Position numbers and translations under genes: made by a program. Shown here piece by piece: positions 4,230 to 61,273 of a stretch of 64,000 nucleotides of DNA; the stretch's first letter is position 1, and every line of letters starts with the position of its first letter. This DNA comes from an uncultured Bdellovibrionales bacterium. GTDB lineage: Bacteria > Bdellovibrionota_C > UBA2361 > CAIXSY01. Below the pieces are notes generated by a model. It did no database searches, had not been told where the DNA came from, and saw only the letters and a program-made list of their open reading frames with translations. The stretch spans positions 9,007 to 73,006 of the forward strand of contig CAZEAC010000008.1 in the NCBI GenBank assembly GCA_964510065.1. Direction: 5' to 3'.

Positions 4230-5783
4230 CTATCGGACCTCAAATACCGTAGCCACCGCGTCAGCATGGATCAAAAAATAACGGGAGTCCTGCGCCAATT
4301 TTTTGCTTAACGCCGAGCGCGTAGCAAGCATAAGATGCGAAACTTTCATCGCACGAAGAAATGGCTGCATATCAACGTCCCCCTTCAGATAACCAAAATA
4401 TTCCCGGTAATAGCTCTCGCCAAAAAGCACACAGCGGTCATCGATGATTGCCTTAAGCTTTCCTGCGCCAGCGAAAGTTATAAAACCACCCCAATTGGGC
4501 GAGGCAAAAACGACCGGCGCCAAATCTCGCTTCACTGAGAGCATCTGTTCGACTGCGGCATAGGGAAAGCGCTCCTTGGATGGACCAAAGCTGCCATTGA
4601 ATCCAGGAATAGTTCCTGTAGCTCTTGCCGACAGCGCCACCACAATGCTCACCACCGCCAGGGCGCCAAATCGGAGGGCGCTTTTTTCATGACTTTCAAG
4701 GGTGCCGAAAATTCTTGTCACGGGGCGAAGAATACCAAGCGCTCCAAAAACTCGGCTTCGTGAAAAATTAAAGAGGATCTCGGCGACAAACGGTACCATC
4801 GCCATTCCGAAAAAAGGCAGCACTCGCACAACTTTCACGCACCATGCACCAAACACAAGGAAAAGAAGTATCTCGTAGCTACCAACCTTCAACCCCTGCA
4901 CTCCTCCCAAAAGGAGCGACGCGATGGCGAGCCCTACAATAAGAAGCCAAAGATCGCCCTCAGCGCTGGCCATACTCAGAGCACCCCACTCATCATAGAG
5001 CGATTTGAGATAATCACTTCCGACCAGCGAAAAGATGCTCTCATGGAGCGCTACTCCGTAGGGATTTATCAGCGTTCCAAGAAGTGAGACGAAAATCGCA
5101 ACGGCCCCAAAGGCTATCATTCCGTGCTGCACTGATCTTCCAAAAAACATTCGCTCGGAAATAAGCGCCACAACATGCACCAGGAGAAGCGCGAGTCCAA
5201 TCACAAACGAAGGGTGCAGATTCGCCCAAAGCACAAACAGCGCGAAATACGCACATAGGTAGCCAAACGCACTGAGCAGACTTACCCCCGTACCGGCACG
5301 GCGCCAAAGCTTAAGAGAAAGAAGCAGCGCGCAGGCAAAGCACAGATGCCCAAATAGGACAGGACGCAAAATAAAATGCACTGCACCAAGCCGGAGTCCT
5401 AGAAGTGCTGCCACGCTTACCGCAATTGCCGAGCTATATTTACGACCGAGCGGATGGGCAAGCAGTGCTAAGAACGCAAAAAGATACAGCAGCACACCTC
5501 CAGCGTAGAGCAGTGGCCAGGAACCCTGGCGATAGAACACCTGCATAATCAGATCCGAAAGCCACTGATCTGACACCCAGCTTCGCGCTTCTGTTGAATA
5601 AAGAAACGGATCGTGGGTAGGGATGCTTCTTGTATCAAGCATATACGCGCCGCTCTTGAGGTGCCAACCAAGGCCGGGGTCATCGGCGAACGTATCGAGT
5701 TGAAGAGTAATCAGCAGAGTCGCCGCGACGATTACGACGAGGTCGTGGATCGAGATAAGCGATCTGCAGCACCGCGCAACCAT
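4230..5783 (-). CDS. polytopic membrane protein, GT-C-like (DUF2029/GT87-related) putative glycosyltransferase with C-terminal soluble domain
   Basis: 517 aa with more than 10 predicted TM segments. An acidic motif FADDPGLGWHL is followed by ...DPFLY in the first loop. The start abuts the upstream DUF2029 gene (stop 5785, start 5783). Confidence 0.55.
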   Translation of the reverse strand: MVARCCRSLISIHDLVVIVAATLLITLQLDTFADDPGLGWHLKSGAYMLDTRSIPTHDPFLYSTEARSWVSDQWLSDLIMQVFYRQGSWPLLYAGGVLLYLFAFLALLAHPLGRKYSSAIAVSVAALLGLRLGAVHFILRPVLFGHLCFACALLLSLKLWRRAGTGVSLLSAFGYLCAYFALFVLWANLHPSFVIGLALLLVHVVALISERMFFGRSVQHGMIAFGAVAIFVSLLGTLINPYGVALHESIFSLVGSDYLKSLYDEWGALSMASAEGDLWLLIVGLAIASLLLGGVQGLKVGSYEILLFLVFGAWCVKVVRVLPFFGMAMVPFVAEILFNFSRSRVFGALGILRPVTRIFGTLESHEKSALRFGALAVVSIVVALSARATGTIPGFNGSFGPSKERFPYAAVEQMLSVKRDLAPVVFASPNWGGFITFAGAGKLKAIIDDRCVLFGESYYREYFGYLKGDVDMQPFLRAMKVSHLMLATRSALSKKLAQDSRYFLIHADAVATVFEVR

Positions 5784-5784
5784 T

Positions 5785-6783
5785 TTAACGCCGCTCCTGT
5801 AACATTAACCTCCAGCTTAGCAGGGGCAATGCAAGTATTGAAAGTTTAGAAATGCAGAAATTCCACCATTGTGCCTGTGCGCCCGACGAAAGTGACACTA
5901 GATCTTCAGGCGACAGCGACATCAAAATGAGCGCTACAAGGATGCAAATTCTGTCAGATTTTAACATTGGCCGCGATAGCAGCAGACCAATCGGAACGAA
6001 TGTAACGATAAAGACCGCGGAACTTACAAGCGGCGCAAGTAGAGGAATGGCGAGAAGCAGCAGTGCGAACCCATAATCGAGCTCACGCGAGGAACGCATT
6101 GACTTCATGACACTAAGCATTCCCCGCACGAGCAGTGCGAAAAGCGCGGCGAAGACAAACCCACCAAGCCACGGCGCATCAAAGGCCGGCGCAGATTCAC
6201 CGGCTTGAAATACCGACATAATTAGCGCAAATAGCGAGATATTACCCGGGAGCGCTCCCCATGTCTGTAGAAGCTCCGGATTCTCATACAATCGCAGGTC
6301 ATGCAGATTGCGAAGTTCCGGGATAAGCACGAACGAAACGAGCACCGCGCACGCAGCAAGCGCAAACCCAGTGGCGGCTCGCCAACTACGACGAAATATA
6401 AGCCAGATAAGGAGCATCACTGCCGCAGGCTGTAACACAGAGCCTGCCCCAAAGAAGATGCCGGCACTAATCTCTTTACCGCGCCGGTAACTCAACCACC
6501 CAAGCACTATAAGCAATGCGACAAAGCTCCACGGGCTCTTGCTTGTGATAAGTTGAAGAAACGGAAACCAAAGAAGTAGCCCCGGTAACGAGAAGACAAA
6601 AAGACTCCCGATAAGTGAAAACTCTTTAGTAATCAGTATCAGTAGCGACAGATAGGCAAGCAATGAAAGCGCGCCCAGAAGAACGCTATTCGCGGGAAGC
6701 AAAAAACATAAGACCGCTACGGCAAGAAGTGAAAGCGCAGCAATAACGGCGCCATAGAGCCTTCGATATCTCGATGTAATCAC
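5785..6783 (-). CDS. DUF2029/GT87-like membrane protein (paralog family)
   Basis: 332 aa and polytopic. The conserved block RGKEISAGIFFGAGSVLQPAAVMLLIWLIFRRSWRA is nearly identical in pattern to RGRDISAGIFWGSAAALKLFPLLWILMLLIGRRWRA in the 16495-17634 ORF. Confidence 0.55.
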   Translation of the reverse strand: MITSRYRRLYGAVIAALSLLAVAVLCFLLPANSVLLGALSLLAYLSLLILITKEFSLIGSLFVFSLPGLLLWFPFLQLITSKSPWSFVALLIVLGWLSYRRGKEISAGIFFGAGSVLQPAAVMLLIWLIFRRSWRAATGFALAACAVLVSFVLIPELRNLHDLRLYENPELLQTWGALPGNISLFALIMSVFQAGESAPAFDAPWLGGFVFAALFALLVRGMLSVMKSMRSSRELDYGFALLLLAIPLLAPLVSSAVFIVTFVPIGLLLSRPMLKSDRICILVALILMSLSPEDLVSLSSGAQAQWWNFCISKLSILALPLLSWRLMLQERR

Positions 6784-6928: not shown

Positions 6929-8101
6929 ATGGAAAGAATGAATCTCAAAGAATTTATACTGCATCTTTGCCTCGCGGCACTCGTCGTAAGCTGCATTGAA
7001 CTTCCGGCATTAGTAAACACAGATCTCTTTGCCTACTACAGTGCTTCAAAAGTCGTGACCAGTGGTGAGAACCCCTATGTCACAGAACCTCTTCTCACTT
7101 TTCAAAAAGAGCTAAAATCAGGACAGCATGAAGCCTTCCGAGTCTGGAACCCTCCAACGGTATTTGGCCTCTTTATTCCGCTTTCGCTTCTTGGACCTGA
7201 GAACGCTGTAAGAATTTGGTTCGGACTATCGCTGCTCGGTCTCACACTATCAGCGAATATTTGGTGGTGCATGTTGGGGCAAAAGTCGTCTCGGCTATTA
7301 CTAGAAGTAAGCTCGGTGCTGCTCTTTCTGCCCGCGCTACTTGCGCTTAGGCTGTGCCAGTTGAATGCCGTTTTACTGCTATTTTTCGTGCTTGGACTAC
7401 TATTTCTCCAAAAGGAACGCTTCTACTTTTCAGGCTTACTCCTTGGCATACTCTTCATAAAACCTCACGCATTCTGGCTTCCTTGCGTCGTCGCGAGCTT
7501 TCTTGCCGCTCGTGCCTTACGTTGGCAGTTTTTCCTGGGTGCTATCAGCGCCGCCGCAATATTCTCGCTTCCAGCACTACTATTTCGCCAAAGCGTATGG
7601 CTCGACTGGATTCACACTCCACGCCCGCCTGTCGACAACATCGCTTCAAGTTTGGTTGGCATCGCACGGCTTACCCTATCGCGCTCTGGCGAGCTTCCGC
7701 CGCTCTGGCCGGGCTGGCTAATTCCCGGCCTTGCGCTTCTGCTGCTAGGAATCTTTCTCCTTCGCTCAAATGGCGAAGCCTCGTTTGGAAAAGCTATTAG
7801 TATCGCGGCAATTCTAAGCCCGATTGCGATGCCTTACGGCTTTTTTAATGATCAGCTCATCGCCGTGCTTGGCCAGTGCTATCTGCTTCAACGAATCTTC
7901 AACAAGCAACGCTCAGCTATCGACTACATGATGCTTGCTGCTCTTGTACTGCTTCAGATCAGCACTCTTCTGTTTGCAGCCTTCGTAGCGCTTGATCATC
8001 GAACCTTTTGGTATCCGATTGGGCTGCTATGCATTTTTGCTGAATTTGAGCGACGAGAAGCAAGACTAAGGCCTTGTGGCAAGCACTCGGGCAGCGCTTA
8101 A
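6929..8101 (+). CDS. DUF2029/GT87-family membrane glycosyltransferase (GT-C)
   Basis: 390 aa and polytopic. The N-terminal loop motif DLFAYYSASKVVTSGENPY (D-x-YY ... PY) is typical of the PimE-like DUF2029 family. A central K/R-rich loop block is shared with the paralogs. Confidence 0.6.
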   Translation: MERMNLKEFILHLCLAALVVSCIELPALVNTDLFAYYSASKVVTSGENPYVTEPLLTFQKELKSGQHEAFRVWNPPTVFGLFIPLSLLGPENAVRIWFGLSLLGLTLSANIWWCMLGQKSSRLLLEVSSVLLFLPALLALRLCQLNAVLLLFFVLGLLFLQKERFYFSGLLLGILFIKPHAFWLPCVVASFLAARALRWQFFLGAISAAAIFSLPALLFRQSVWLDWIHTPRPPVDNIASSLVGIARLTLSRSGELPPLWPGWLIPGLALLLLGIFLLRSNGEASFGKAISIAAILSPIAMPYGFFNDQLIAVLGQCYLLQRIFNKQRSAIDYMMLAALVLLQISTLLFAAFVALDHRTFWYPIGLLCIFAEFERREARLRPCGKHSGSA

Positions 8102-9136
8102 AAGATTTTCGGCAACGAGATCGGGCGTTACTGCATATTTCTTATCATCGCCGGCGCGGCCGGTTTTTACCAGCACGCCAAACATTCCGGCATTGCGTGC
8201 AAGCTGTATATCAATAGTCATATCGCCGATTACTACGCTTCGTTCGCGAATTATATTGAGCTCACGAATCCCGCGTTCGACCATCCCGGTACTTGGTTTT
8301 CGGCAGCTGCAATTTTCTGCGTCAGAATGCGGACAGTAAAGAATCTTGTCGAATACCACACCAGCTTCCCGCGCAAGCAGCATCATCTTTCGATTAACCC
8401 GATAAAAATCCTCTTTGGTAAAATAGCCCAGACCGATCCCGGGCTGATTAGTTACTATTACAATGCGGTAGCCGTGTTGCCGCAAAAGTTTAATACCCTC
8501 GAAAGCTCCGGGGATGATTTCCAATTTTTCGGGTTCGGCAAGAAAATCAACGTACTCATTAATCGTTCCATCGCGATCGATAAACGCCGCCGGAGCGGGA
8601 GTCGGAGGAGCAATCACGATACTACTCGCCTCCGATTTTGCGCACTGCGATGAGATCTTTTCGATTATTGCGCTCGAAGAGTATCCGGCGAGCACCGGAA
8701 CGAGCAGCACCTTTCCGCCATACGCTTCGACAAGCTTCGCTGAGGAGAGCTCTTCTCTCTTGTAGTCTCCGGCCTTTATGTAAAAATCTGGCTTTAGCGC
8801 TTCAATGTTCGCTGCGTTATTTTTCTCGGAGAAAATAAATACGAAATCGACGGAAGCGAGCGCAGCAATAACCTGGGCGCGCTCTTTTTCACCAACTATA
8901 GGCCGATTGCTTCCCTTGTTCTCCTGTACCGAACTATCTGAATTGATGCCAACCACAAGACAGTCGCACTTTGCGCGGGCTTTCTCGAGGTAGTCAACGT
9001 GGCCAGGGTGTACGATGTCGAACACGCCCGACGTAAAACCAACCTTCTTCTCCGACCTATTCCATCCCGTAAAGAGGCCCGCTATTTCATCGCGGGTCAC
9101 AAGTTTTTGCATATATGCACTCATCAGTAGCGTCAT
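8066..9136 (-). CDS. bifunctional heptose-1-phosphate adenylyltransferase (HldE domain II-like cytidylyltransferase) fused to D,D-heptose-1,7-bisphosphate phosphatase (GmhB-like HAD)
   Basis: N-terminal half: GVFDIVHPGHVDYL (the HxGH nucleotidyltransferase motif of RfaE/HldE domain II). C-terminal half: FIDRDGTINEY...VIVTNQPGI...CPH...CxCRKP (the GmhB HAD and zinc motifs). The start was chosen at the Met preceded by AAAGGTG; the maximal ORF extends to 9154. Confidence 0.7.
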   Translation of the reverse strand: MTLLMSAYMQKLVTRDEIAGLFTGWNRSEKKVGFTSGVFDIVHPGHVDYLEKARAKCDCLVVGINSDSSVQENKGSNRPIVGEKERAQVIAALASVDFVFIFSEKNNAANIEALKPDFYIKAGDYKREELSSAKLVEAYGGKVLLVPVLAGYSSSAIIEKISSQCAKSEASSIVIAPPTPAPAAFIDRDGTINEYVDFLAEPEKLEIIPGAFEGIKLLRQHGYRIVIVTNQPGIGLGYFTKEDFYRVNRKMMLLAREAGVVFDKILYCPHSDAENCSCRKPSTGMVERGIRELNIIRERSVVIGDMTIDIQLARNAGMFGVLVKTGRAGDDKKYAVTPDLVAENLLSAARVLATRP

Positions 9137-9225
9137 TGTAGAGCACCTTTGCATTGAGGTAAATACGACAGAGAAGCACCGTGTTGATTATACAAGTCCG
9201 CGCCTATGGTCACTGCGGCTACGCA

Positions 9226-10446
9226 TTACGTCGATTGCAATTCCAACGATGCACTCTCGATGATTTTCGAGTAGATGTCGCGAGCTTTGTTTCTAATTAA
9301 CGAAAAGGAGAGCCGCCGCTGCGCGAGTTCGGTATTGATGCGCGCCGCCTCATCAACAAGCTTGTCATCGAAGAGCGCTCGACGAAGTTCTCGCTCAATA
9401 ACCTCCGGATCTTCGGGCGGTACGATTGATCCGTTTCGTCCATTTTCCAACCATTCGTCAGCGCACGCGGTCCCCGATTGAATTGGATATGCCCCCATCA
9501 CCAGCGCCTCAAGCATCGAGGTGCAGACTCCGTCGCTTATCGCCAGGCTCATAGAGATTCTTGCGCTCCCGTGTAAAGAGAGCATATCGGTGTGCGAAAT
9601 CGCCTTCTCAAGAACGGTAATTTTGCAGCCGTTCGACTTTCCAAGTAATTCGGCCGACTCCACAACTCCTGATTCAGGGCACACCGAGTAAATAACAATT
9701 TCGTAGTTTCGAATGAGCTCACCACATCGCTTCAACGCCTGCAACGCAACAAGCGCTCGCCCGGCCCAACCCTGATATCCTTTCACCATGATGATCTTTC
9801 GTGACGACGGCGGATCGCGACGCAACGTTTTGGTTTTGTCGAGGTCAAAACCTCCCGCATTTGGAAAGGGTTCAAACATAACGCCCTTGTAACCAAATTC
9901 GCGCGCGAGCGTGCGATCTCTCGAACATTCACAAGAATAGTAATCTATGTTTGCGAGCAGTTCTCTTACCCGATCCCGGTGTTGAGACAAACGTCCGAAT
10001 AGATATATATCATTACCCCAGTTCGTGCCCAGCCATTTAGGAAATGTACGAGCAGAAAGTTTTTTTGCCTCCAGCGTAAGGTATCCGGCACATTGAAAAT
10101 TCATTGAATGAATAAAAGTCGGATTTAGCTTGTGAACGAGATTTCTGAGCTGAACGATGCGATGTCGAGGCAGTGCGGCCGTCAGCATCTTTCGCATTCG
10201 CCAAGCGACCGTATCACTGAACATGGGTAGTCCTTTGAAATTTACCGAGTGATGCGCGTTTTTTCTGCCCGCGTACAAGGAATGATGGACTGTCACGTTG
10301 CGAATGTCAGGATGCAAACGACCCAAATCTATGCTGGGGAAGAGATGTAATTCATAGTCGTCGTCCGCAACATTTTCAATCCAACGAGCCACATGTACGC
10401 TGTTGGACTGAGCAACCATTAAAATTTTCGGCTTATTTAATTTCAT
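9226..10446 (-). CDS. GT4-family (GT-B) glycosyltransferase
   Basis: 406 aa. The C-terminal motif EALVMGAYPIQS...ENGRNG matches the E-x7-E GT4 signature region. Confidence 0.6.
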   Translation of the reverse strand: MKLNKPKILMVAQSNSVHVARWIENVADDDYELHLFPSIDLGRLHPDIRNVTVHHSLYAGRKNAHHSVNFKGLPMFSDTVAWRMRKMLTAALPRHRIVQLRNLVHKLNPTFIHSMNFQCAGYLTLEAKKLSARTFPKWLGTNWGNDIYLFGRLSQHRDRVRELLANIDYYSCECSRDRTLAREFGYKGVMFEPFPNAGGFDLDKTKTLRRDPPSSRKIIMVKGYQGWAGRALVALQALKRCGELIRNYEIVIYSVCPESGVVESAELLGKSNGCKITVLEKAISHTDMLSLHGSARISMSLAISDGVCTSMLEALVMGAYPIQSGTACADEWLENGRNGSIVPPEDPEVIERELRRALFDDKLVDEAARINTELAQRRLSFSLIRNKARDIYSKIIESASLELQST

Positions 10447-10530
10447 GCCATGGCACCAATCGATATAGCGGCATTCAGCACTTCGCTATACGTATACTCA
10501 AGCGTAACTTTCAAGCCTACTGTCGACTAA

Positions 10531-10956
10531 TTAATAGAGAGGATAGTAATCTTCTCGAGGCTTTGTCGAGATGTTCCCATTTTTTTCGTAACTTGCGTGA
10601 AGCACCTTCAATAAATACCAATGTATTAAGAAAGCTTTCCTCCAGAGCAAAGACGAGGGCAATGAGCCACGCATGCTTGGCTCATTAGAATAGAGCGATT
10701 TATCATCACTCCGCAGCTCGGCGTGTTTCCAGCCGGCTACTCGCTGACAAAATAATTTTTCTGTTCTTGCGCGCGCGAGTATCCAGGCCACTCCTAGTAC
10801 GCCGTAGAATAAAATGAAGATACAAAAAGAGAAAAATTTTCGAATAATCAATCGACACATGACTATCAGCGCGTGCAAGGACTTCGCGCGACCCAATCGC
10901 CGAAATCTTCGTTCCCATGCCTCTCTACTCAAGCCACTCATCCAGTGCGTTCTCAA
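10531..10956 (-). CDS. small hypothetical protein with one TM segment (possibly spurious)
   Basis: 141-aa ORF on the operon strand between the carbamoyltransferase stop (10979) and the GT4 start. The region is comparatively AT-rich, so it may instead be a non-coding spacer. Confidence 0.25.
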   Translation of the reverse strand: MRTHWMSGLSREAWERRFRRLGRAKSLHALIVMCRLIIRKFFSFCIFILFYGVLGVAWILARARTEKLFCQRVAGWKHAELRSDDKSLYSNEPSMRGSLPSSLLWRKAFLIHWYLLKVLHASYEKNGNISTKPREDYYPLY

Positions 10957-10978
10957 TCAATGTCTAGTTCGATGCGCG

Positions 10979-13797: not shown

Positions 13798-14007
13798 ATT
13801 TTAACTCGGTCACTAATGTGACGGAGAAAGCAAAATCATAATATCTTCCAAGGTATCTAGGCTACAGCTCCAAGATACATTAAAAAAGGGATGACTTAAA
13901 CGCTAGACAAAGTATCGAACCACTAAGATGATAGCGTGGATGCGCGCGACAGCTCTCTATCGGAAATAACCGCGCGCGGAGCTTAATGCTTCCTATTGAA
14001 AGCTGTT

Positions 14008-41565: not shown

Positions 41566-42196
41566 TTACTAAAAACTGCCGTCCGAAGAAGGGCCATACA
41601 AACGGCATCGCTAGATACAGTCGAGTGAGCAACGATGACGCCGGCAATCGCCCGCGAAAAGAGAATGGCAAAAACTTTCTGATTGTTCGTTCAATGCTAT
41701 ATCCGGCGGCGTAGAGATGTTCGCCAATCGAGACATCTGTCAAAACAAGCCGGTGATCCGCACAATCGAAGTACTCTCGGGAACAGTACTTAAAATTGGG
41801 TCCCATGATCGCGATACGTCCTTGCGGCTTGAGGCAACGATACATTTTTTGCAAAAGCGCGCTAATCTCTTCGGGCGAATGCAAATGTTCGAGAAAATTC
41901 GAAATATAAATTAAATCAAAACGTGCATCAGGCAAATCAAGCTCTAGTGTGTTGCCTTTTAGAAAATGAACTTTTGAATCCATGTGCGCCGGCTCCCGCA
42001 AATCGACTCCCCATTTATCAGGACTGGGCATGGCTTTGATAAATTCCATGTCGCCACATGCGGGATCAAGCACCGAGTGTGGAGCACCCATGCTGCGATA
42101 AAACCACCGCGCAATCTCTCCCCACACGACTTCCTTTGAGGCGCGGCTTACACCGGCAAATCGATATTCATAAATACGGTCGTAGTTCACCGACAT
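41531..42196 (-). CDS. class I SAM-dependent methyltransferase
   Basis: VLDPACGDMEF is motif I. LKPQGRIAIMGPN is also present. It overlaps the upstream GT2 stop. Confidence 0.6.
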   Translation of the reverse strand: MSVNYDRIYEYRFAGVSRASKEVVWGEIARWFYRSMGAPHSVLDPACGDMEFIKAMPSPDKWGVDLREPAHMDSKVHFLKGNTLELDLPDARFDLIYISNFLEHLHSPEEISALLQKMYRCLKPQGRIAIMGPNFKYCSREYFDCADHRLVLTDVSIGEHLYAAGYSIERTIRKFLPFSFRGRLPASSLLTRLYLAMPFVWPFFGRQFLVIGKKSDSATPD

Positions 42197-42894: not shown

Positions 42895-42897
42895 GTG

Positions 42898-52369: not shown

Positions 52370-52373
52370 TAAC

Positions 52374-53657: not shown

Positions 53658-53835
53658 AGCGTGTTCTGAACTTTTGTCCTGCTGCGAGCCCCAATTCGCA
53701 TTAAACTGCTTCGTTGGCCTAGTCGCGAGTACTCGCAAGCCTGATAGGCTTGCTCCGCGCTCGCTCCGGCGGCCGCCTCGCATTTTAACGCGACTTGGTG
53801 CTCTCGCGACGGACAAAAGTTCAGAACACGCTCTA
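53655..53835. repeat. MITE-like element / structured intergenic module bounded by 25-bp perfect terminal inverted repeats
   Basis: TAGAGCGTGTTCTGAACTTTTGTCC at 53655-53679 and its exact reverse complement at 53811-53835. The interior contains the palindrome GCGAGTACTCGC and the hairpin GCAAGCC-tgata-GGCTTGC. The terminal TA of each repeat forms part of the stop codon of the flanking convergent gene. Confidence 0.5.
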
Positions 53836-54969
53836 ATGTTTGCCAATCATTTTTTCAATCACGGGCACAAGTTCACGCCCAATTCGCTCGGCAAGTAGCT
53901 GATTGCCTTTATCGCCCACATGAACCGAATCGATAAAGAGCTCGTAATCTTTCGGAAGTGAATCGAATACATCACTTATATTACGATAGTAGAAGTTTTC
54001 GCCCCGGACGGCGCGCAAGGCTTGGTCAATTGCATGATACGCCTGCATGGCCGGAGAGTTGGCTTCTCTTTTTATAAATTTTGATTCACGCACCGTCAGC
54101 GGCTTGTTTCCGACCTGTCCGTGAGGCTGAAGAAAAAAGAAGTAAGGGACATCTTTCTCCGCAAGAGCGGATATCGCCAGCTTTACATTTTTTGCCAAAC
54201 GATACCCGATCGTTTCGGGGGTAATTGATGCTTCAGCCGGAGCGAGATCCCTCGGCTCGGGAAATCCAAGCGCAAGATAGAGTTGCCTCAGCAGTTCCAA
54301 ATAGTAGTCATCGTAGAAGGCACGAAACCAAAGCACATTTCGACGTTGATGCCCCCAATACACGTCATTACACCCCGACAACGATACAATCAGATCAGGA
54401 TTTCTCTCGGATAGATAATTTTCAATAAGTATTCTTTCTTGAGTCGAAGCCCATGCCGGGTTGGCAATGGTAAACACATTGAGCAACACCTCAGAACTTC
54501 GCACGCTGACTCTTTCTCTCAAATAGCGCTCAAGAAATGCTCCGACAGTTTGCTCATTTCCGGGAGCGCCGGAGCCGTATGCGACAGAGCCGCCAACCAG
54601 GAAAACACGAAATTCGTTCGCCTGCTTCCTTTCGGTAAATTCCCTGGTATCTCTCGCCATTGATGAGTTAATAGTGGCATTTGCATGCACTCCCGGCTCG
54701 GGCGCGCTTCCAACAAATGGCGCGGGCACATTAGGGACCGCCCACGAGATCGTTGCTATATCAGGAGGCGTGCGATATGCCGGTGTCACATTATGAAAAT
54801 TTTCATTGAGCGTCGGAAGCAAGCTGCCAAGCGTTTGATGCACCTGGGCCGAGGTAATGAATGACCGCGATTCAACGAGTACGGAACGCTGCCCTACATA
54901 AAAGGCCAGGGCCATCGCTCCTCCCTGGAGCAACAGAAACAACAGCGCGCCAAACATGCGAGATTTCAT
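53833..54969 (-). CDS. membrane-anchored SGNH-like hydrolase (GGS variant), paralog family
   Basis: An N-terminal signal/TM segment is followed by FLVGGSVAYGSG. It is 378 aa. Confidence 0.5.
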   Translation of the reverse strand: MKSRMFGALLFLLLQGGAMALAFYVGQRSVLVESRSFITSAQVHQTLGSLLPTLNENFHNVTPAYRTPPDIATISWAVPNVPAPFVGSAPEPGVHANATINSSMARDTREFTERKQANEFRVFLVGGSVAYGSGAPGNEQTVGAFLERYLRERVSVRSSEVLLNVFTIANPAWASTQERILIENYLSERNPDLIVSLSGCNDVYWGHQRRNVLWFRAFYDDYYLELLRQLYLALGFPEPRDLAPAEASITPETIGYRLAKNVKLAISALAEKDVPYFFFLQPHGQVGNKPLTVRESKFIKREANSPAMQAYHAIDQALRAVRGENFYYRNISDVFDSLPKDYELFIDSVHVGDKGNQLLAERIGRELVPVIEKMIGKH

Positions 54970-55134: not shown

Positions 55135-56079
55135 ATGGCGCACAACACTACGGAAACAATTTGGTGTATTTCACCGGTATACTTTGACTTCAAGTCATTT
55201 TCACGCCTTCGCTCGACTATTCAGTCGGTGCTTCGCGAATCGCATCCTCATTCAACTGTAAAGTTCATCATTGTCGACGATTCCGCCGGCAATGATCACG
55301 AACTCGGAGAAATGAGCAATAAGCCCGACATCGTGATGGTCGTGCCGCCGTACAATCTTGGACATCAACGTGCGCTCGTCTTCGGAATTCGCAAGACGAA
55401 ACATCTCTTTGCCGAAAACGACGTGATTATAACTCTTGATGCCGATGGCGAAGATCGCCCGGAAGATCTGCCAAGCCTTTTGCAGGCATTGCCGCCTTCC
55501 TCCGCTTCGGAAGCCAAAAACTCGATCGTACTCGCACGGCGTACATCGCGAAAAACATCCTATTTCTTTAAAATTCTGTACTTCTTCTTTCAAATTTTCT
55601 TTCGATTATTAACCGGCATTGTAGTGCGCACCGGAAACATGGCCTGTTATCGCGCGCAAGCAATCATGCTTGCTATTGGCCATCCTTTCTTTGATCAATG
55701 CTACTCTTCAACACTCATCGCACTTCGTTTTCGAAGGATATTCGTTCCATGTCCACGCGGCCGACGCTACTTTGGGTCCTCGAAAATGAACTTCTGGAGT
55801 CTGCTTGTGCACGGACACAGAATGCTCATGCCATTTATTGATCGCATAGCGATTCGGCTGCTGTTTTTCATTGCCGCGTTGTTCCTTGCCACACTCGTGC
55901 TGCTCGGTACCGGACTTGTTGCCGCGCTCTTTTTCAACCAGGCAACTTTGGGCGCATTCTCTTGGATTGCATTGGGATTGTCAGGACTTTGCATGGTACT
56001 GCTCGTCAACTTCTTGGTACTCTTTACTGTGGTTGCTCAATCACAGGCTATTTCGTTGCGGGGCATTGAAGAAAAGTGA
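55135..56079 (+). CDS. GtrB-like GT2 polyprenyl-phosphate glycosyltransferase with C-terminal TM hairpin
   Basis: FIIVDDSAGND...ITLDADGEDRPEDL are the GT2 DxD blocks. The C-terminal ~100 aa contains 2 hydrophobic helices, as in GtrB/ArnC. Confidence 0.75.
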   Translation: MAHNTTETIWCISPVYFDFKSFSRLRSTIQSVLRESHPHSTVKFIIVDDSAGNDHELGEMSNKPDIVMVVPPYNLGHQRALVFGIRKTKHLFAENDVIITLDADGEDRPEDLPSLLQALPPSSASEAKNSIVLARRTSRKTSYFFKILYFFFQIFFRLLTGIVVRTGNMACYRAQAIMLAIGHPFFDQCYSSTLIALRFRRIFVPCPRGRRYFGSSKMNFWSLLVHGHRMLMPFIDRIAIRLLFFIAALFLATLVLLGTGLVAALFFNQATLGAFSWIALGLSGLCMVLLVNFLVLFTVVAQSQAISLRGIEEK

Positions 56080-56792
56080 ACACGCCGAACGACCGCTATC
56101 AGGGAAAAGAGCTCGATCTTTTCGAACAGGCCGTACGCTGGAAGCGCTACTTCGGTGCGAAGATCGCTCCGCATCTCCGTGGATCGGTCTTGGAGGTTGG
56201 AGCCGGTCAAGGTGGAACAACTGTCGCGCTCGCACCGCTTGTGTCTACTTCATGGACCTGCCTCGAGCCCGACGAGCAGCTACTTGCCTGCATCGAAAAA
56301 AAGATAAACACCGGAATACTTCCTGGTCATTGCACATTGGTTCAGGGCACGATCAATTCAATGTCCGCGTCGGATCAATTTGGTTCGATCTTGTACATTG
56401 ATGTGCTCGAGCACATAGGTGACGATCGCGCTGAACTTTCAAATGCCGCGAGCCACCTCGAAAAAGGCGGCAGAATCGTGGTTCTTTCTCCCGCGTTCAA
56501 CCTTTTGTTTTCACCTTTTGATAAAGCCGTGGGGCACCATCGCCGCTACACCAAGAAATCACTTGAAGCGGCGATCCCTTCGAACTTTACATGCATTACC
56601 ACATGTTATCTCGATAGCGTTGGCGCGGCGTTATCGCTTAGCAACCGGATCCTCCTTCGTCAGCGCACGCCAAGCACTCAGCAAATCCACTTTTGGGACA
56701 ATATAGTCGTCCCCTGCTCGATGATTATCGATCGCGTACTCGGTCATAGCTTCGGTCGATCCATTCTCGGAATTTGGGAAAAAAATGCCTAA
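56076..56792 (+). CDS. class I SAM-dependent methyltransferase
   Basis: VLEVGAGQGGTT is motif I. LEKGGRIVVLSP is also present. The GTG start overlaps the GtrB-like stop (GTGA). Confidence 0.65.
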   Translation: MNTPNDRYQGKELDLFEQAVRWKRYFGAKIAPHLRGSVLEVGAGQGGTTVALAPLVSTSWTCLEPDEQLLACIEKKINTGILPGHCTLVQGTINSMSASDQFGSILYIDVLEHIGDDRAELSNAASHLEKGGRIVVLSPAFNLLFSPFDKAVGHHRRYTKKSLEAAIPSNFTCITTCYLDSVGAALSLSNRILLRQRTPSTQQIHFWDNIVVPCSMIIDRVLGHSFGRSILGIWEKNA

Positions 56793-58068
56793 GAGCGACT
56801 TCCCCTCAAAGACATCCGACGCTAATAAACGACTGAGCGGCAAAAAATTGATCCTGGCCACACTTGCGGGAATCATTGGCATAATGATCGGCAGTTGGTT
56901 ATTATCGAATACTCCGCTCTACGCTCATCAAGGCACACGAATTCAAATTTTTGATTTTGCCTACTACGTTTCGATGATCTCGTTGTTTTGGAGCCGCCCA
57001 AGTGTCGACATATATTCGTTCAGCGACAATCAGCTGATGTTGCAGCAGCTCTTTGATTTTGTTCCCGCGACTGTCATGCCTTTCGGTATAAGTCCCTCAA
57101 GTGTTTTGATCTTGGCGCCCTGGGCTGGTCTTGCCCGCTGGAGCCTTGATTTCAGCTTTCTCATGTGGCTTGGACTATCTTGTGCGGCACTCGCGACAGC
57201 AATTCTCATTGTGATAGACACCTGGCCGCGGCAATTTCTTCGCGATATTCCGGCGATCACACTTCTCGTGGTGGTCCTTGCTTCAGACTCCTTTTTAGGA
57301 GCTCTGCTTCGAGGGCAAACCTCCGCTCTTGCCCTCGCGGGACTTCTCTATCTTACCTATTCTTGCTTCAGCGGGGGCACAAAGCCAAGCGGCTGGATTC
57401 GCGACGCGGGTATACTTGCCTTGCTCTCGATAAAGCTGCCCTATTTTATCATAGCGAGTCTCACTCTGCTCATCTTTCGACGCCATAGAGCCGCCCTTAC
57501 CGGCACTGCCATCGCTGCATGCGCAGTAGCGTTCGCCCTCGCGCTATCGCCCCCCGGAACATTTCGGCATTTTATCGGGACACTCAGCCTCTTCTCAAGT
57601 CAACAGATTCCACCGCACTATGCAGGCGCTTTCTCTTTCTCGGAGATTAGCACTTTAGCAACCGCGCTCCCCGACTCACTTTCACGCGCGCTTCGAGCCA
57701 CCCTTTCGCTTGTCCTGGCCGCAGTCTGTTTGGGCGCGGTAGTGATTCGAAAGTTCAAAGCTACACCAATCGGGCCGAGCGAAATAATTTTGATCGTTGG
57801 CAGTTATTTGCTTTTCTCGCCGTACGTCGGGGCCTATGAGGACATTTTACTTCTTCTACCGGCGCTTTTCATTTTTCGTGAACGCGATCGTACGTGGAAT
57901 ATCAAAGTAATCGTGACATTGATTCTCAGTGCGATCTATTTAAATCGCGGCATATTAGATCTCGGCACGCTCCAGTGGACCATGTGCCCGGTCAAATTCG
58001 CGATATTTGCCTGTCTCTTGCTTGTCGCGCGCGGCACTTCACGAGCCTCCGTGACCAGGCTAGCGTAA
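56785..58068 (+). CDS. DUF2029/GT87-family membrane glycosyltransferase (GT-C)
   Basis: 427 aa. The first loop reads FDFAYYVSMISLFWSRPSVDIY. The central block ...SGGTKPSGWIRDAGILALLSIKLPYFI is shared with the paralogs. Confidence 0.55.
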   Translation: MPKSDFPSKTSDANKRLSGKKLILATLAGIIGIMIGSWLLSNTPLYAHQGTRIQIFDFAYYVSMISLFWSRPSVDIYSFSDNQLMLQQLFDFVPATVMPFGISPSSVLILAPWAGLARWSLDFSFLMWLGLSCAALATAILIVIDTWPRQFLRDIPAITLLVVVLASDSFLGALLRGQTSALALAGLLYLTYSCFSGGTKPSGWIRDAGILALLSIKLPYFIIASLTLLIFRRHRAALTGTAIAACAVAFALALSPPGTFRHFIGTLSLFSSQQIPPHYAGAFSFSEISTLATALPDSLSRALRATLSLVLAAVCLGAVVIRKFKATPIGPSEIILIVGSYLLFSPYVGAYEDILLLLPALFIFRERDRTWNIKVIVTLILSAIYLNRGILDLGTLQWTMCPVKFAIFACLLLVARGTSRASVTRLA

Positions 58069-59139
58069 CGTCACCACGAACTGCTCGCCAATCTCACCAC
58101 CGAACTTTTCCGATCCTGCGCGAGTAAGATGCACGTGATCATAGAAGAATTCGGCGTGCCCATTAATGTCTTCAACGCGATCAAACACATTCACCTGATG
58201 AGTTCGCGCCACTTCGTAAATAGTTCTCTTGATTGCTTCGTACGCAGCGACTAGCCCACGATGAGAGAAAGAAGTGTACCCATACTCGATTCGCTCCTTG
58301 TCACTTTGTTCATTGCGCTCTGAAACAAGAGTCGGTTCAATAAGAAGTACCGGATCCGCCCCGCATTCTCGCACTAACACAATAAAAGAGCGAAGCGTCT
58401 GCGAAAGCTGCGCGAGAGCCTGTGAGTCTGGAGTATCGATTCCTTGAGCGGCAATTATTCGCCCCTCCGAACCAGGGTTAAGCACAATTGAAAAATACGA
58501 GTTCCGCGCGGTCATATAGATTTGTGATAGCGAGCCCAAGAATCTATCAATACGGCCCTGATAAAAGCGAAAGGGATCGCCGTCTTCATTATACGGTGCG
58601 CGAATTCTTATGAGCGGACGCGCGTCGGCGAGGTCTTTGATATCATTCCATCCGACGGCGAGCACGATATGCGAGGGACGTAATCGATAAATCTCAGCGA
58701 AAATTCGACCCACCGCATCCGAAGCCGAATGCCCTGGAATTCCCGCGTTAATAATTTCAATCTGCTCGGATCGGGTATGTTCCAGAACTTTTTTTACCTT
58801 GTCCAGCCAAGTCTCGCCGTCATTATTGTATATATCAAACACAAACGAGCCGCCCATGACCACAATCTTATGGCGAGCGCTCTCCGCGGAGTCATCGAAT
58901 TCCGCTCCTCGATACCCGCGGGAGTTCACATATGCGCGAGTGCGGCTACTTTCATTAACGGCATTCTGAGTATGCTCCGGAAACATCGAACGCGCAAAAA
59001 CCGCCGGCGTATATTCAAGATATTTGCTTCGATACTCATCAGGGGTCGCCACATGCCCAAGAAAAAGCCTGGTGAGCAACTCAGTAACCGCGAGCCCCAG
59101 CACAATTCCACCAAGCAGTCTAACAAATTCTCGTTTCAC
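58060..59139 (-). CDS. membrane-anchored SGNH-like hydrolase (GGS variant), paralog family
   Basis: An N-terminal TM segment is followed by IVVMGGSFVFD. ...HIVLAVGWNDI resembles SGNH block III. Confidence 0.5.
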   Translation of the reverse strand: MKREFVRLLGGIVLGLAVTELLTRLFLGHVATPDEYRSKYLEYTPAVFARSMFPEHTQNAVNESSRTRAYVNSRGYRGAEFDDSAESARHKIVVMGGSFVFDIYNNDGETWLDKVKKVLEHTRSEQIEIINAGIPGHSASDAVGRIFAEIYRLRPSHIVLAVGWNDIKDLADARPLIRIRAPYNEDGDPFRFYQGRIDRFLGSLSQIYMTARNSYFSIVLNPGSEGRIIAAQGIDTPDSQALAQLSQTLRSFIVLVRECGADPVLLIEPTLVSERNEQSDKERIEYGYTSFSHRGLVAAYEAIKRTIYEVARTHQVNVFDRVEDINGHAEFFYDHVHLTRAGSEKFGGEIGEQFVVTLR

Positions 59140-59151: not shown

Positions 59152-60348
59152 TTAAAAGAATCCACACAATACCGTGCTCCCTTGAACCTGATCACAGCGT
59201 AACGCAAAGACATACAGCGCTTGAAGACCAATTGATATGAGCGCGGCAACGCACAACGCAGCCCGTAAAACTTTACGAGGACGCGCCAACGCACTCGCGC
59301 GAAAAAGTATTGGAGCCATCAACGTTAAGCTCTCCAGTGGATAGCGGTAATTGAAGGCGAGTCCGCCCGATACCTGTCCCATCCGTACGTGCACAATCAG
59401 ATATACAATTGCCCCGACAAAGAGGCTCTTTTCAAACAATTCTGAACCTTTCCAAGCGCCAGGTAGGGTTACCATTAGCACCAAGAGCATCGGCGACCAG
59501 ATAAAAAGTCCGTTACTACCGATCAGCGCGTCCGTGAATCGGGAGAAATTACTCACGACCGGCGTCGAAAGGAGATGCTCCTTAAAAACAGGAGAATAGC
59601 CGCCCGTGACACTTGGAGCGCTAAATACCAGATCATTATAGAGCACGAGTCCAATGACACCGATTGAGATACCGAGAATCCAAGGTCCAAATACTTTCAA
59701 TTTTCCGGACATTGCGAAAAATGGAAACATAAAAAAAATCGCCGCAACCGCCAGCGGCGCGCGCGCCATAATTGCAAAGCCAAGGGCGAGCCCCGATAAA
59801 AACATTCGTTCATGAAAAAACGCCAGCATTGCAAGCGCGAGCATGAGCTGCGTCACCGAATGCGGCCAGAGCTGATTAGCAGATATCGCCCAGGTTGCCG
59901 TGCCGAATGCAAACGCCAAAGCAGCAATCATGGCATCAGCAGCGGAGCCGAAACGGCAAAGTATCAGATACACTAAAAGCACTGCGAAAAGCGCGCACAC
60001 CACCGCGCATATAGTGCCGGGCCCGGGAGTAAAGCTCGCGGTACTCGAAAAAAAATAAAACGGTACCGCCAAAAGAAAAGTTCCAAGCGGTCGATTGCTC
60101 ACCGGGCCGATCTTACTCTCCACAATCCAGGGGTTACCGCGAAACTCAGGCACCGCGACAGTTCCACGCTTGGCAATACTCCATGCCGCGAGCGCGCTCG
60201 CTTCCGCATCAACATTAATCTCAGGTCCGTAATTCGCGCTCAGCGCATAAATCGCACCCACAATAATGGCGAGCACGATTCCGTAGCGAACCTTCCCGCG
60301 AAAAGGAGATGCCTGTGAATTAGCGTCGGTCACGGGACTCAAGTTCAA
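59152..60348 (-). CDS. polytopic membrane protein, GT87/DUF2029-related GT-C candidate
   Basis: 398 aa with about 10 TM segments. It contains the block ERMFLSGLALGFAIMARAPLAVAAIFFMFPFF similar to the paralog family. The 5' end overlaps the upstream GT2 gene by 29 bp, so the start is uncertain. Confidence 0.5.
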   Translation of the reverse strand: MNLSPVTDANSQASPFRGKVRYGIVLAIIVGAIYALSANYGPEINVDAEASALAAWSIAKRGTVAVPEFRGNPWIVESKIGPVSNRPLGTFLLAVPFYFFSSTASFTPGPGTICAVVCALFAVLLVYLILCRFGSAADAMIAALAFAFGTATWAISANQLWPHSVTQLMLALAMLAFFHERMFLSGLALGFAIMARAPLAVAAIFFMFPFFAMSGKLKVFGPWILGISIGVIGLVLYNDLVFSAPSVTGGYSPVFKEHLLSTPVVSNFSRFTDALIGSNGLFIWSPMLLVLMVTLPGAWKGSELFEKSLFVGAIVYLIVHVRMGQVSGGLAFNYRYPLESLTLMAPILFRASALARPRKVLRAALCVAALISIGLQALYVFALRCDQVQGSTVLCGFF

Positions 60349-61273
60349 GTCTCTTTATTCGCGCGAGTGCGTCTTCCAAAAGCCGGCGATTAAATTGAAT
60401 AATGTCGGCGACAAGACCAATAAGTATCAACATGACGCCAGCGAGAAGGAATACCGCGGCGAAGATCAGCGATTGAATCTTCCCCTGACTGTTCGCAAAA
60501 AAGAAAAAATACGCAAAGCGCCCCGCCAATGCGCCACCGACCAATATTGAAAGTACACCCGCTTCGATAAAAAGCCTCAGCGGATTATACATCGTAAACA
60601 CTCGAATAATCGTCGCCATGGAGAAAATGATATAGGTCCTGATGCTGCTCATCAGTCTGGAGTTGCGGGTACTCTTATTCGTGCGGATCCGTACATCCCG
60701 AATCACAAGCCCCTTTGCTCGAGCCTGGAGAATTACCTCGTGTGTGTAGGTAAAATTACTGAGTATGGTGAGGCGAAGCGCGGCCTCGCGCGAAAACGCA
60801 CGAAAGCCGCTGGCTGCGTCTCGCACCGTCGTAGAGGAAAGTTTTCGCACCACCGCGCTGCCGAGCCACTGCAAAAACTTTTTGACGGCGGAAAATTCCT
60901 CGATATTGTTCGTGCCACGATCGCCCACGACGATATCTGCCTCCCCTTTCAGGATAGGTGCGATCAACTTCTCAATTTCACTTCCCGGATATTGATTATC
61001 GCCATCCATGTTGACGATGATATCGGCTCCGCGCGCAAGGGCTGCGTCGATGCCGGTACGAAAGGCGAAAGCCAGGCCGAGGTTTCCAGTATGGCGAACA
61101 ACTTCGTGTACACCGTTTTTCTTGGCGACCTCAATTGTTCGATCGGTCGAGCCATCGTCAACGATAAGTGTCTCGATGCTGTCGATCCCTGGAATACTTC
61201 GAGGTATCCCAGCAAGGGTATCAGGAAGGGTGTGTTCCTCGTTGTAACATGGGATCTGTATGACAAGTCTCAT
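60320..61273 (-). CDS. ArnC/GtrB/DPM1-like GT2 polyprenyl-phosphate glycosyltransferase with C-terminal TM segments
   Basis: RLVIQIPCYNEE...LIVDDGSTDRT...IVNMDGDNQYP matches the GT2 blocks. The C-terminus holds two hydrophobic helices. Confidence 0.75.
   Translation of the reverse strand: MRLVIQIPCYNEEHTLPDTLAGIPRSIPGIDSIETLIVDDGSTDRTIEVAKKNGVHEVVRHTGNLGLAFAFRTGIDAALARGADIIVNMDGDNQYPGSEIEKLIAPILKGEADIVVGDRGTNNIEEFSAVKKFLQWLGSAVVRKLSSTTVRDAASGFRAFSREAALRLTILSNFTYTHEVILQARAKGLVIRDVRIRTNKSTRNSRLMSSIRTYIIFSMATIIRVFTMYNPLRLFIEAGVLSILVGGALAGRFAYFFFFANSQGKIQSLIFAAVFLLAGVMLILIGLVADIIQFNRRLLEDALARIKRLELESRDRR

Follow-up and report, generated by a model that had tools for sequence, protein, structure and literature searches.

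A Wzm/Wzt glycan island with ten to twelve predicted GT-C-type membrane glycosyltransferase genes in an uncultured Bdellovibrionales bacterium

Introduction

The periplasmic glycosylation of O-antigens exported by ATP-binding cassette (ABC) transporters, which involves a trio of a synthase, a flippase, and a GT-C glycosyltransferase, is established biochemistry (PMC11127046). In Citrobacter youngae O1/O2, this trio is formed by the ORF15 synthase, the ORF14 MATE flippase, and the ORF12 GT-C enzyme, assigned to family GT136 (PMC11127046, Kelly et al. 2024). Here, we describe a glycan island around a Wzm/Wzt exporter in a 64,000-nucleotide stretch of contig CAZEAC010000008.1 (assembly GCA_964510065.1) from an uncultured Bdellovibrionales bacterium. 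This whole stretch is referred to as the window, and proteins are labelled by their start coordinate. As in the Citrobacter O1/O2 and the Shigella and Salmonella Gtr systems, a Wzm/Wzt-type glycan is associated with a dedicated synthase and an adjacent GT-C gene, whose products would make a lipid-phosphate sugar and transfer it to the already polymerised chain, and the window contains three such pairs. However, those loci each comprise one GT-C gene, one synthase, and one recognisable flippase, whereas the window has three synthases, ten to twelve GT-C-type genes, no flippase gene, and embedded methyltransferases. With a probability of roughly 60%, we favor the reading that this single island specifies an ABC-exported surface glycan tailored in the periplasm by many GT-C enzymes.

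In mycobacteria, PimE and the GT-C enzymes of the phosphatidylinositol mannoside (PIM), lipomannan (LM), and lipoarabinomannan (LAM) pathways use polyprenyl-phosphate-mannose provided by Ppm1 (PMC12041525, PMC3485146). Five GT87-type proteins of the window recall PimE, three of them keeping the equivalents of its residues D58, Y62, and K195, and a soluble Ppm1/DPM1-like family 2 glycosyltransferase (GT2) is encoded at 42187-42894. In contrast, the mycobacterial enzymes act on phosphatidylinositol-anchored lipoglycans and have no tie to Wzm/Wzt in one locus, and the identity of the window proteins to PimE is low. In mycobacteria, the genes for these enzymes are dispersed over the genome. In the reading favored here, extracellular decoration of an ABC-exported polymer by a GT-C enzyme paired with a GtrB-like GT2 is a feature shared with the streptococcal rhamnan side-chain system (GacI/GacJ/GacL) and the lactococcal and Bacillus CsbB-YfhO pairs. 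These are Gram-positive wall polysaccharide systems with one to three such pairs, and we know of none with GT87 proteins or with as many GT-C genes. The ArnA/ArnC/ArnT and rhizobial RgtA-E systems find a parallel in the genes from 45104 to 38697, where a dehydrogenase, a short-chain dehydrogenase/reductase (SDR), a GT2 synthase, and GT-C candidates follow the same order of chemistry. Unlike those systems, this string has no ArnB or ArnD equivalent and contains extra methyltransferases, its scores for ArnC and ArnA fall well short of the equivalog cutoffs, and lipid A is not established as the acceptor. Our literature searches returned nothing on Bdellovibrio-type O-antigen GT-C clusters, and no described ABC-transporter glycan locus with a comparable number of GT-C genes was found. 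The recognisable components of the window all fall into known superfamilies, and the underlying principle, here scaled up several-fold, is known as well.

The membrane protein set

Pfam and NCBIfam scans place nearly every gene of 4230-62248 in glycan biosynthesis, and this block of ~58 kb runs uninterrupted from 4230 to the galU gene ending at 62248. The long open reading frames (ORFs) tile the window almost fully, the GC content is uniform at ~49%, and no tRNA genes were found in the window. The island therefore covers 4230 to at least 61273, the interval for which the initial annotation had proposed a glycan locus, and its right edge plausibly lies at GalU. Ten to twelve of its genes appear to be of the GT-C type and fall into at least six sequence families. 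Support for a GT-C identity is good in eight cases (4230, 5785, 6929, 15285, 16495, 38697, 47180, and 56785) and weaker for 18831 and 59152, while 39916 and 49132 are candidates by their topology and Asp motif. Membership of GT87 was defined by the gathering threshold (GA) of 25 bits of the Pfam model PF09594 (DUF2029). The twelve polytopic proteins, with their transmembrane (TM) segments where relevant, are the following:

4230-5783 (-): predicted GT-C-fold membrane glycosyltransferase of a Pfam-less family; ~11 TM segments and a C-terminal periplasmic domain
5785-6783 (-): N-terminally truncated GT87-type protein; Pfam GT87 26.6 bits against a GA of 25; TM1 and first loop missing; Gln aligned with PimE K195
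6929-8101 (+): GT87 glycosyltransferase; Pfam GT87 60.5 bits; D32/Y36/K178 correspond to PimE D58/Y62/K195
15285-16505 (+): divergent GT87-like protein; no Pfam match; S41 at the Asp column, Tyr and K202 kept
16495-17634 (+): GT87 glycosyltransferase, the best PimE-like member; Pfam GT87 93.7 bits; D38/Y42/K182 invariant in the family
18831-20384 (+): probable PMT/ArnT-like GT-C protein; Pfam PMT 22.3 bits against a GA of 22.7; hhalign 35% to the 38697 family, in register
38697-39923 (-): GT-C protein from a large family that has no Pfam model and is distantly related to GT87; 658 cluster representatives at E<1e-3; no Pfam or NCBIfam match
39916-41565 (-): orphan polytopic protein of 549 residues, GT-C candidate; 8-9 TM segments, a loop of ~200 residues, then 3 TM segments; FD54AGNYLDM after TM1
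47180-49012 (-): predicted GT-C-fold glycosyltransferase of a rare Pfam-less family; 610 residues; Cys-rich C-terminal periplasmic domain
49132-50361 (+): orphan polytopic protein, GT-C candidate; PD40STQYLEM motif after TM1
56785-58068 (+): GT87 glycosyltransferase; Pfam GT87 41.7 bits; D57/Y60-61/K217 kept
59152-60348 (-): member of the LA_3751/LA_3752 (Leptospira) putative-glycosyltransferase family; NCBIfam NF047440 E 9e-7, 28 bits against a cutoff of 200; no Pfam or PDB match

All twelve genes are intact long ORFs without frameshifts. The ten membrane ORFs listed by the initial annotation are present and polytopic, with ~6-11 hydrophobic segments each, and its core idea of an ABC-transporter-dependent locus unusually dense in transferases using lipid-linked donors holds. 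Its list was incomplete, as it overlooked 39916-41565 and 47180-49012, the latter with a GT-C fold. It had also described the proteins as paralogous, which the comparison within the set does not bear out: an all-against-all BLASTP search, whose E-values come from small local databases and serve for comparison within the set but not with database-wide values, detects two pairs, 5785/16495 (27% identity) and 6929/15285 (26%), the former being the maximum, and the proteins are spread over at least six families. Eight had been called DUF2029-like; four of these pass the Pfam GT87 threshold, while 4230, 38697, and 59152 are missed by our own GT87 hidden Markov model (HMM). This HMM detects none of 4230, 38697, 59152, 18831, 49132, 39916, and 47180, and a common DUF2029 ancestry of all the membrane proteins was rejected because these seven escape it. 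As for the motifs said to be shared, the R(G/K)xxISAG...RRxW block occurs in its literal form in 5785 and 16495 only, the other proteins having at best the GT87 Lys motif. The first-loop Asp motif is found in ten of the twelve polytopic candidates; the loop is absent in 5785, and 15285 carries a Ser.

The closest homologs of the membrane proteins are 37-43% identical. For 16495 they occur in metagenome-assembled genomes (MAGs) of Acidimicrobiia, Bdellovibrionota, and Verrucomicrobiia, and for 4230 in MAGs of Oligoflexia, Bdellovibrionales, 'Deltaproteobacteria', and SAR324. Because these external relatives are much closer than the supposed paralogs within the locus, we conclude that the set was brought together from lineages that diverged long ago, rather than arising through duplication in place. 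Horizontal transfer probably contributed to this assembly, and the host is likely a Bdellovibrionota-like diderm. Among 19 related loci examined, the number of GT-C genes per locus reaches a maximum of four.

GT87-type proteins

The residues D58, Y62, and K195 are essential in PimE (PMC12041525). By alignment, all three are kept in 6929, 16495, and 56785, that is in three of the five GT87-type proteins. A profile built from the orthologs of 16495 matches the solved PimE structure (PDB 9dm5) with an E-value of 8.7e-11, aligned over the central region only. The suggested analogy with PimE and GT87 is valid for the five GT87-type proteins and does not extend to the others.

The two remaining members deviate from this pattern. 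Considering its sequence, 5785 is probably non-catalytic, and its ORF cannot be extended upstream because 6929 begins 146 bp upstream on the opposite strand. Its stop abuts the start of 4230 (5785/5783), and it could be a relic or else a partner protein without catalytic activity. The 15285 protein appears GT87-like through an intermediate homolog only: it is homologous (E 4e-8) to a GT87 ORF of a Verrucomicrobiia MAG (L015), which itself scores 6e-26 on the GT87 HMM. Comparison with hhalign reports 92% to a broad GT87 profile and 0.2% to the narrow profile of the 16495 orthologs, and BLASTP aligns 15285 with 6929 at 26% identity and 34.7 bits. The Pfam GT87 model returns no match to 4230, 15285, 38697, or 59152, even at E<=10. 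Literature searches found no account of the function of GT87/DUF2029 proteins outside Actinobacteria.

Families without a Pfam model and orphan proteins

Three membrane proteins, 4230, 38697, and 47180, belong to families devoid of any Pfam model, in all of which the first-loop acidic residues are invariant. The 4230 and 47180 proteins exhibit a GT-C fold, as judged from the comparison of their predicted structures with solved GT-C enzymes and from the acidic residue of the first loop. ArnT is a top structural match for both, and their best matches include the protein glycosyltransferases DPY19, STT3B, AglB, and Pmt4. The C-terminal domain of 4230 matches the globular domain of AglB, and no WWDYG signature of oligosaccharyltransferases (OST) was identified in 4230.

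The 4230 family is widespread, with hundreds of members of ~520 residues, one of which is titled 'Glycosyltransferase RgtA/B/C/D-like' in UniRef. In the two contigs carrying its closest relatives (L018, at 10001-11581, and P0040), an AhpC gene lies upstream and a gene for a VKOR-thioredoxin/DsbA fusion directly downstream, an SDR and a ribose-5-phosphate isomerase are encoded a few genes away, and topoisomerase genes of the parC/parE or gyrA/gyrB type are nearby; L018 also encodes a 368-residue GT2. This context hints at a housekeeping role of the family in the envelope or in protein modification, distinct from O-antigen tailoring.

The 38697 family has an invariant D39 in the first loop (GHNYD), an invariant D103, and an invariant central K179. 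Its profile aligns with GT87 at 52% in one profile-profile comparison and at 90.9% (E 1e-6, 274 in-register columns) in a second one, and among 54 members three match Pfam GT87 and one matches PMT_2. We therefore accept 38697 as a putative GT-C family remotely related to GT87. Searches of the PDB sequences, with single sequences and with profiles, returned no match for 4230, 38697, 59152, 18831, 49132, and 39916.

The orphans 39916 and 49132 have a GT-C-like topology and a motif of the Asp-x-x-x-Tyr type just after TM1, and 39916 is located between synthase and methyltransferase genes and 38697. Pfam gives no Wzy_C signal in either protein, even at E<=10, but both may still be Wzy polymerases or WaaL ligases.

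Polyprenyl-phosphate-sugar synthases and a recurrent cassette

Three small GT2 enzymes have polyprenyl-phosphate-sugar synthases as their best NCBIfam matches, while the fourth GT2 of the island (23557) is directed to TuaG and EpsE. The synthases and the genes that accompany them, including S-adenosylmethionine (SAM) methyltransferases, are:

42187-42894 (-): soluble GT2, polyprenyl-phosphate-sugar-synthase-like (Ppm1/DPM1/PpgS type); Glycos_transf_2 94 bits; best NCBIfam matches PgfS, ArnC, and Dol-P-hexose transferase; no TM segment
55135-56079 (+): GT2, ArnC/GtrB-like polyprenyl-phosphate-sugar synthase; Glycos_transf_2 48.6 bits; sole NCBIfam match ArnC, full length, E 1.7e-10; TM 238-256 and 282-300
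60320-61273 (-): GT2, AglJ/PpgS/GtrB-like polyprenyl-phosphate-sugar synthase; Glycos_transf_2 90.8 bits; AglJ 109.7 and PpgS 77.7 bits; TM 232-250 and 270-288
43914-45104 (-): nucleotide-sugar 6-dehydrogenase; TIGR03026 249 bits, above the cutoff of 189.8
42898-43947 (-): SDR epimerase/dehydratase (or decarboxylase) acting on a nucleotide sugar; Epimerase 142 bits; mixed NCBIfam matches to UDP-xylose synthase, the ArnA C-terminal domain, and TviC
41531-42196 (-): SAM methyltransferase (Pfam) inside a synthase-GT-C module
37958-38713 (-): SAM methyltransferase (Pfam), last gene of the string from 45104 to 37958
56076-56792 (+): SAM methyltransferase (Pfam) between a synthase and a GT87 gene; homolog beside GT87 and small GT2 genes in L015

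As is typical of GtrB and ArnC, 55135 and 60320 each have a pair of TM helices at the C-terminus, which 42187 lacks. Each synthase gene is co-oriented with a GT-C-type or candidate gene and lies upstream of it with at most one gene, a methyltransferase, in between: 60320 is followed by 59152, 55135 by a methyltransferase and 56785, and 42187 by a methyltransferase, 39916, and 38697. The last group is part of a longer string, from 45104 to 37958, that encodes a dehydrogenase, an SDR, a GT2, a methyltransferase, 39916, 38697, and a second methyltransferase.

A cassette in which a GtrB-like GT2 gene and a GT-C gene are accompanied by one or two genes for SAM methyltransferases is seen in the window at 55135-58068 (+) and 37958-42894 (-), and elsewhere at 6104-10160 of L020 and 7011-11173 of L015. 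In GCA_040398075.1, the homolog of 47180 belongs to a self-contained operon of a GT2, two methyltransferases, and the GT-C gene, away from any glycan locus; its GT2 resembles all three window synthases and has the C-terminal helices. Within ~8 kb, L015 carries a pair each of 4230-family, GT87, and small GT2 genes, along with a methyltransferase gene homologous to 56076. The recurrence of the cassette in unrelated genomes supports a functional coupling of synthase, methyltransferase, and GT-C protein. We infer that the substrate of the methyltransferase would be either the sugar while still lipid-linked or the residue after its transfer, and the arrangement suggests that the cassette delivers methylated sugars from lipid-linked donors. 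No description of this cassette was found in literature searches.

Export, backbone and decoration genes

The other genes of the island encode the exporter, family 4 glycosyltransferases (GT4), and enzymes of nucleotide-sugar synthesis and decoration:

8066-9154 (-): fusion of RfaE domain II (heptose-1-phosphate adenylyltransferase) with the GmhB phosphatase; TIGR02199 175.9 bits and PRK08942 154.7 bits, both just under cutoff; Pfam CTP_transf_like and HAD
9226-10446 (-): GT4-type Leloir glycosyltransferase; Pfam Glyco_trans_4_2 and Glycos_transf_1
10979-12862 (-): carbamoyltransferase of the NodU/CmcH type; Carbam_trans_N 268 bits, Carbam_trans_C 222 bits
12796-13797 (-): GDSL/SGNH-like protein; Lipase_GDSL_2 28.7 bits, below GA
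13996-15213 (+): GT4 glycosyltransferase; Glyco_trans_1_4 and Glycos_transf_1; 36% identity with 52374-53657
17648-18778 (+): AT3-family integral membrane O-acyltransferase; Acyl_transf_3 99.8 bits
20462-22384 (+): AsnB-type glutamine amidotransferase; Asn_synthase 203.7 bits and GATase_7
22381-23547 (-): GT4 glycosyltransferase; Glycos_transf_1 108 bits
23557-24573 (-): ordinary GT2 Leloir glycosyltransferase, TuaG/EpsE-like; Glycos_transf_2 109 bits; best NCBIfam matches TuaG and EpsE
24539-25606 (-): non-hydrolysing UDP-GlcNAc 2-epimerase of the WecB/FnlC type; TIGR00236 280 bits, above the cutoff of 210
25603-26529 (-): RmlD-like reductase in FnlB-like position; RmlD_sub_bind 51 bits; TIGR01214 55.9 bits, below cutoff
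26555-27655 (-): UDP-GlcNAc 4,6-dehydratase of the PseB/FnlA/CapE family; Polysacc_synt_2 304 bits; PseB 326 against a cutoff of 408, FnlA 241 against 730
27795-28865 (+): methyltransferase (Pfam Methyltransf_24)
28918-29700 (+): TylF-family sugar O-methyltransferase; TylF 150 bits
29712-30458 (-): SAM methyltransferase directly downstream of wzt; Methyltransf_11 64.7 bits; 4-nucleotide overlap with the wzt stop
30455-31696 (-): Wzt, ABC ATPase with a C-terminal carbohydrate-binding domain; ABC_tran 77.5 bits; Wzt_C 46.5 bits against a GA of 30.4
31742-32563 (-): Wzm, ABC-2 permease; ABC2_membrane 65 bits
32560-33657 (-): membrane-anchored GDSL/SGNH protein, presumably periplasmic; Lipase_GDSL_2 54 bits; N-terminal hydrophobic anchor
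33915-34898 (+): SAM methyltransferase (Pfam)
34829-36118 (+): GT4 glycosyltransferase (Pfam)
36183-37949 (+): second carbamoyltransferase; Carbam_trans_C 192 bits; 28% identity with 10979-12862
45300-46046 (+): SAM methyltransferase (Pfam)
46013-47167 (-): GT4 glycosyltransferase (Pfam)
50420-52369 (+): second AsnB-type amidotransferase; Asn_synthase 266 bits
52374-53657 (+): GT4 glycosyltransferase, start moved from 52032 by start-codon analysis; Glycos_transf_1
53833-54969 (-): membrane-anchored GDSL/SGNH protein (Pfam); N-terminal anchor
58060-59139 (-): membrane-anchored GDSL/SGNH protein (Pfam); N-terminal anchor
61370-62248 (+): GalU, UDP-glucose pyrophosphorylase, probable right edge; TIGR01099 351 bits, above the cutoff of 326.8

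The island thus comprises seven Leloir glycosyltransferases (six GT4 and one ordinary GT2), eight SAM methyltransferases, one of the TylF type, two carbamoyltransferases, two AsnB-type amidotransferases, four GDSL/SGNH proteins, one AT3 acyltransferase, Wzm and Wzt, and sugar-nucleotide genes. The three GT2 genes and the ABC-2 exporter reported by the initial annotation are confirmed by Pfam and NCBIfam, and the permease, the ATPase, and the carbohydrate-binding tail of the Wzm/Wzt export system are all present, the Wzt_C domain scoring above its gathering threshold. Because of this Wzt_C domain and of the methyltransferase overlapping the wzt stop, a methyl cap can be suggested, 29712-30458 being the candidate chain-terminating enzyme.

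The nucleotide-sugar genes correspond in part to what had been announced. The ADP-heptose pathway is incomplete in the window, being represented by a fusion of GmhB with the adenylyltransferase (RfaE domain II). This fusion at 8066-9154 is unusual, with no kinase domain and no GmhA nearby; indeed, Pfam scans found neither GmhA nor a heptose kinase domain in the window. Likewise, genes for L-QuiNAc or L-FucNAc (N-acetyl-L-quinovosamine, N-acetyl-L-fucosamine) are represented by an FnlA/B/C-like triad, of which the 2-epimerase is above cutoff and the dehydratase and reductase are assigned at the family level, below the equivalog cutoffs. The dehydratase 26555-27655 scores higher with PseB than with FnlA, and the match of the reductase to RmlD is weak.

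The four GDSL/SGNH proteins, of 330-380 residues, are divergent, with one detectable pair at 27% identity. Three of them (32560, 53833, and 58060) have an N-terminal membrane anchor and two adjoin GT-C genes; a possible role for the four is to remove or transfer O-acyl groups in the periplasm in concert with the GT-C modules. The mechanically called ORF 52032-53657 (+) overlaps the preceding AsnB gene by 338 nucleotides. As its GT4 domain begins late and an ATG at 52374 lies just past the AsnB stop, the GT4 gene is probably 52374-53657.

At the left border of the island lies a HipB/HipA toxin-antitoxin pair at 142-1725 (-), made up of a HipA kinase toxin (HipA_C 173 bits, Couple_hipA 87 bits) and, upstream, an 83-residue HTH_3 protein that is HipB-like. 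It is followed at 1959-3827 (-) by a 622-residue soluble protein whose single match, to DUF6930, is sub-threshold (25.8 bits against a GA of 27) and which has none in NCBIfam. To the right of the island are a small ORF and then, at 62525-63346 (-), a LOG/'lysine decarboxylase'-family protein (SLOG) whose N-terminus is extended by a basic stretch of ~80 residues.

Proposed pathway and alternatives

If we assume, from the family and fold memberships and the gene order observed here, the donors, the acceptors, the topology, and a single common glycan, the following pathway can be proposed. Donors would be provided by the FnlA/B/C-like triad (a 2-acetamido-2,6-dideoxy-L-hexose), the nucleoside-diphosphate-sugar dehydrogenase with the SDR, the HldE-II/GmhB fusion, and GalU. 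The polymer would be assembled on undecaprenyl diphosphate by the six GT4 and one GT2 enzymes, decorated in the cytoplasm by the methyl-, carbamoyl-, and amidotransferases, and exported by Wzm/Wzt, the Wzt tail implying gating by a terminal cap, probably methyl. In parallel, the three GtrB/ArnC/Ppm1-type GT2 enzymes would load three different sugars onto polyprenyl monophosphate. Some of the donors or products are probably O-methylated, since a SAM methyltransferase gene lies between the synthase and the GT-C gene in two modules. The lipid-linked sugars would then be flipped by a flippase encoded outside the window, and ten to twelve GT-C-fold transferases would move them onto the exported glycan. 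These would represent GT87 (five genes), the GT87-related Pfam-less family, two OST/ArnT-like Pfam-less families, a PMT-like and an LA_3751-like protein, and two orphans. Three or four GDSL/SGNH proteins, together with the AT3 acyltransferase, would handle O-acyl groups.

Several observations weigh against this pathway. A single acceptor shared by all the GT-C enzymes is an assumption of the proposal. The gene strands alternate, with at least 15 units of differing orientation, and the closest relatives of 4230 are single genes in a housekeeping neighbourhood and not in a glycan locus. The matches of the three synthases are far below the NCBIfam equivalog cutoffs, and the family assignments of 18831 and 59152 also sit below curated cutoffs. 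By alignment, 15285 and 5785 are without the canonical catalytic residues, and 39916 and 49132 have no relative in Pfam, NCBIfam, the PDB, or JGI metagenome pattern scans (large protein-database homolog searches were not run). No GtrA, SMR, or MATE flippase was found among the window ORFs of at least 70 residues, which include neither a small protein with four TM segments nor a MATE-like one, although it may lie elsewhere in the genome; of the intergenic ORFs, 10531-10956 alone is unassigned, with a single hydrophobic segment and without a Pfam match. Neither an initiating phosphoglycosyltransferase nor a WaaL ligase was recognised in the window.

The strongest rival, and a serious alternative although clearly the less probable one, is a composite island in which independent lipid-linked-donor modules lie beside an O-polysaccharide cluster and serve different acceptors, with no single hyper-branched glycan. 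These acceptors could be the O-chain, the lipopolysaccharide core or lipid A (by ArnT/Rgt-like enzymes), and possibly periplasmic or surface proteins (by OST/PMT/DPY19-like enzymes). The many divergent transcription units fit this view, as do the DPY19, STT3B, AglB, and Pmt4 matches of 4230 and 47180, the AglB-like C-terminal domain of 4230, the solitary genes beside a VKOR-DsbA fusion that are its nearest homologs, and the stand-alone operon of the 47180 homolog. Moreover, the string from 45104 to 38697 mirrors the logic of Arn/Rgt modification of lipid A and core. However, the modules are interleaved with O-chain-type genes in one uninterrupted block of uniform GC content, and no WWDYG signature of OST was identified in 4230.

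Two further explanations were considered. A periplasmic polymerisation resembling that of LM, LAM, or arabinan, in which the GT-C enzymes would build most of the polymer and Wzm/Wzt would export a short primer, would account for the excess of ten to twelve GT-C genes over seven Leloir glycosyltransferases and for the five GT87-type genes, as GT87 includes PimE of the PIM/LM pathway (PMC12041525). We regard it as unlikely, given that there are only three synthases and that a carbohydrate-binding tail on Wzt is typical of the export of completed, capped chains of the E. coli O8/O9a type. At the other end, many of the membrane genes could be decaying or non-catalytic relics of horizontal transfer, with a much lower number of functional GT-C enzymes. 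This would be consistent with the loss of TM1 and of the catalytic loop in 5785 and its Gln at the essential Lys position, with the Ser at the catalytic Asp position of 15285, with the two orphans, and with a piecemeal acquisition from lineages whose nearest relatives, in other phyla, are 37-43% identical. Such widespread decay is nevertheless very improbable: all twelve ORFs are intact and long, without frameshifts, first-loop acidic residues are invariant throughout the 4230, 38697, and 47180 families, and the tight coupling of 5785 to 4230 points to a retained, perhaps accessory, role.

Significance

Glycosylation outside the cytoplasm from lipid-phosphate sugars is a known route to the diversity of surface antigens. 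Unusual features here are a single Wzm/Wzt locus with so many and such diverse GT-C genes, the Pfam-less families, the two orphans, and the methyltransferase-containing cassette. The GT-C fold could be assigned to two of these families (4230 and 47180), and the synthase-methyltransferase-GT-C cassette could be a search handle for new glycan modifications. A more far-reaching proposition, which we hold to be doubtful, is that a Bdellovibrionota-like Gram-negative bacterium builds much of its surface polymer extracytoplasmically, with up to 12 GT-C enzymes, pre-methylated sugars, and at least three Pfam-less families (4230, 38697, and 47180), as a counterpart of LAM/arabinan synthesis on a Wzm/Wzt system. 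If true, glycans would be diversified across phyla by a new mobile unit, the cassette with its methyltransferase. The described Gram-negative and Gram-positive loci have one to three GT-C genes, and ten to twelve in a single Wzm/Wzt locus would be the densest arrangement known to us. It would suggest that periplasmic tailoring can dominate the structure of a glycan outside Actinobacteria.

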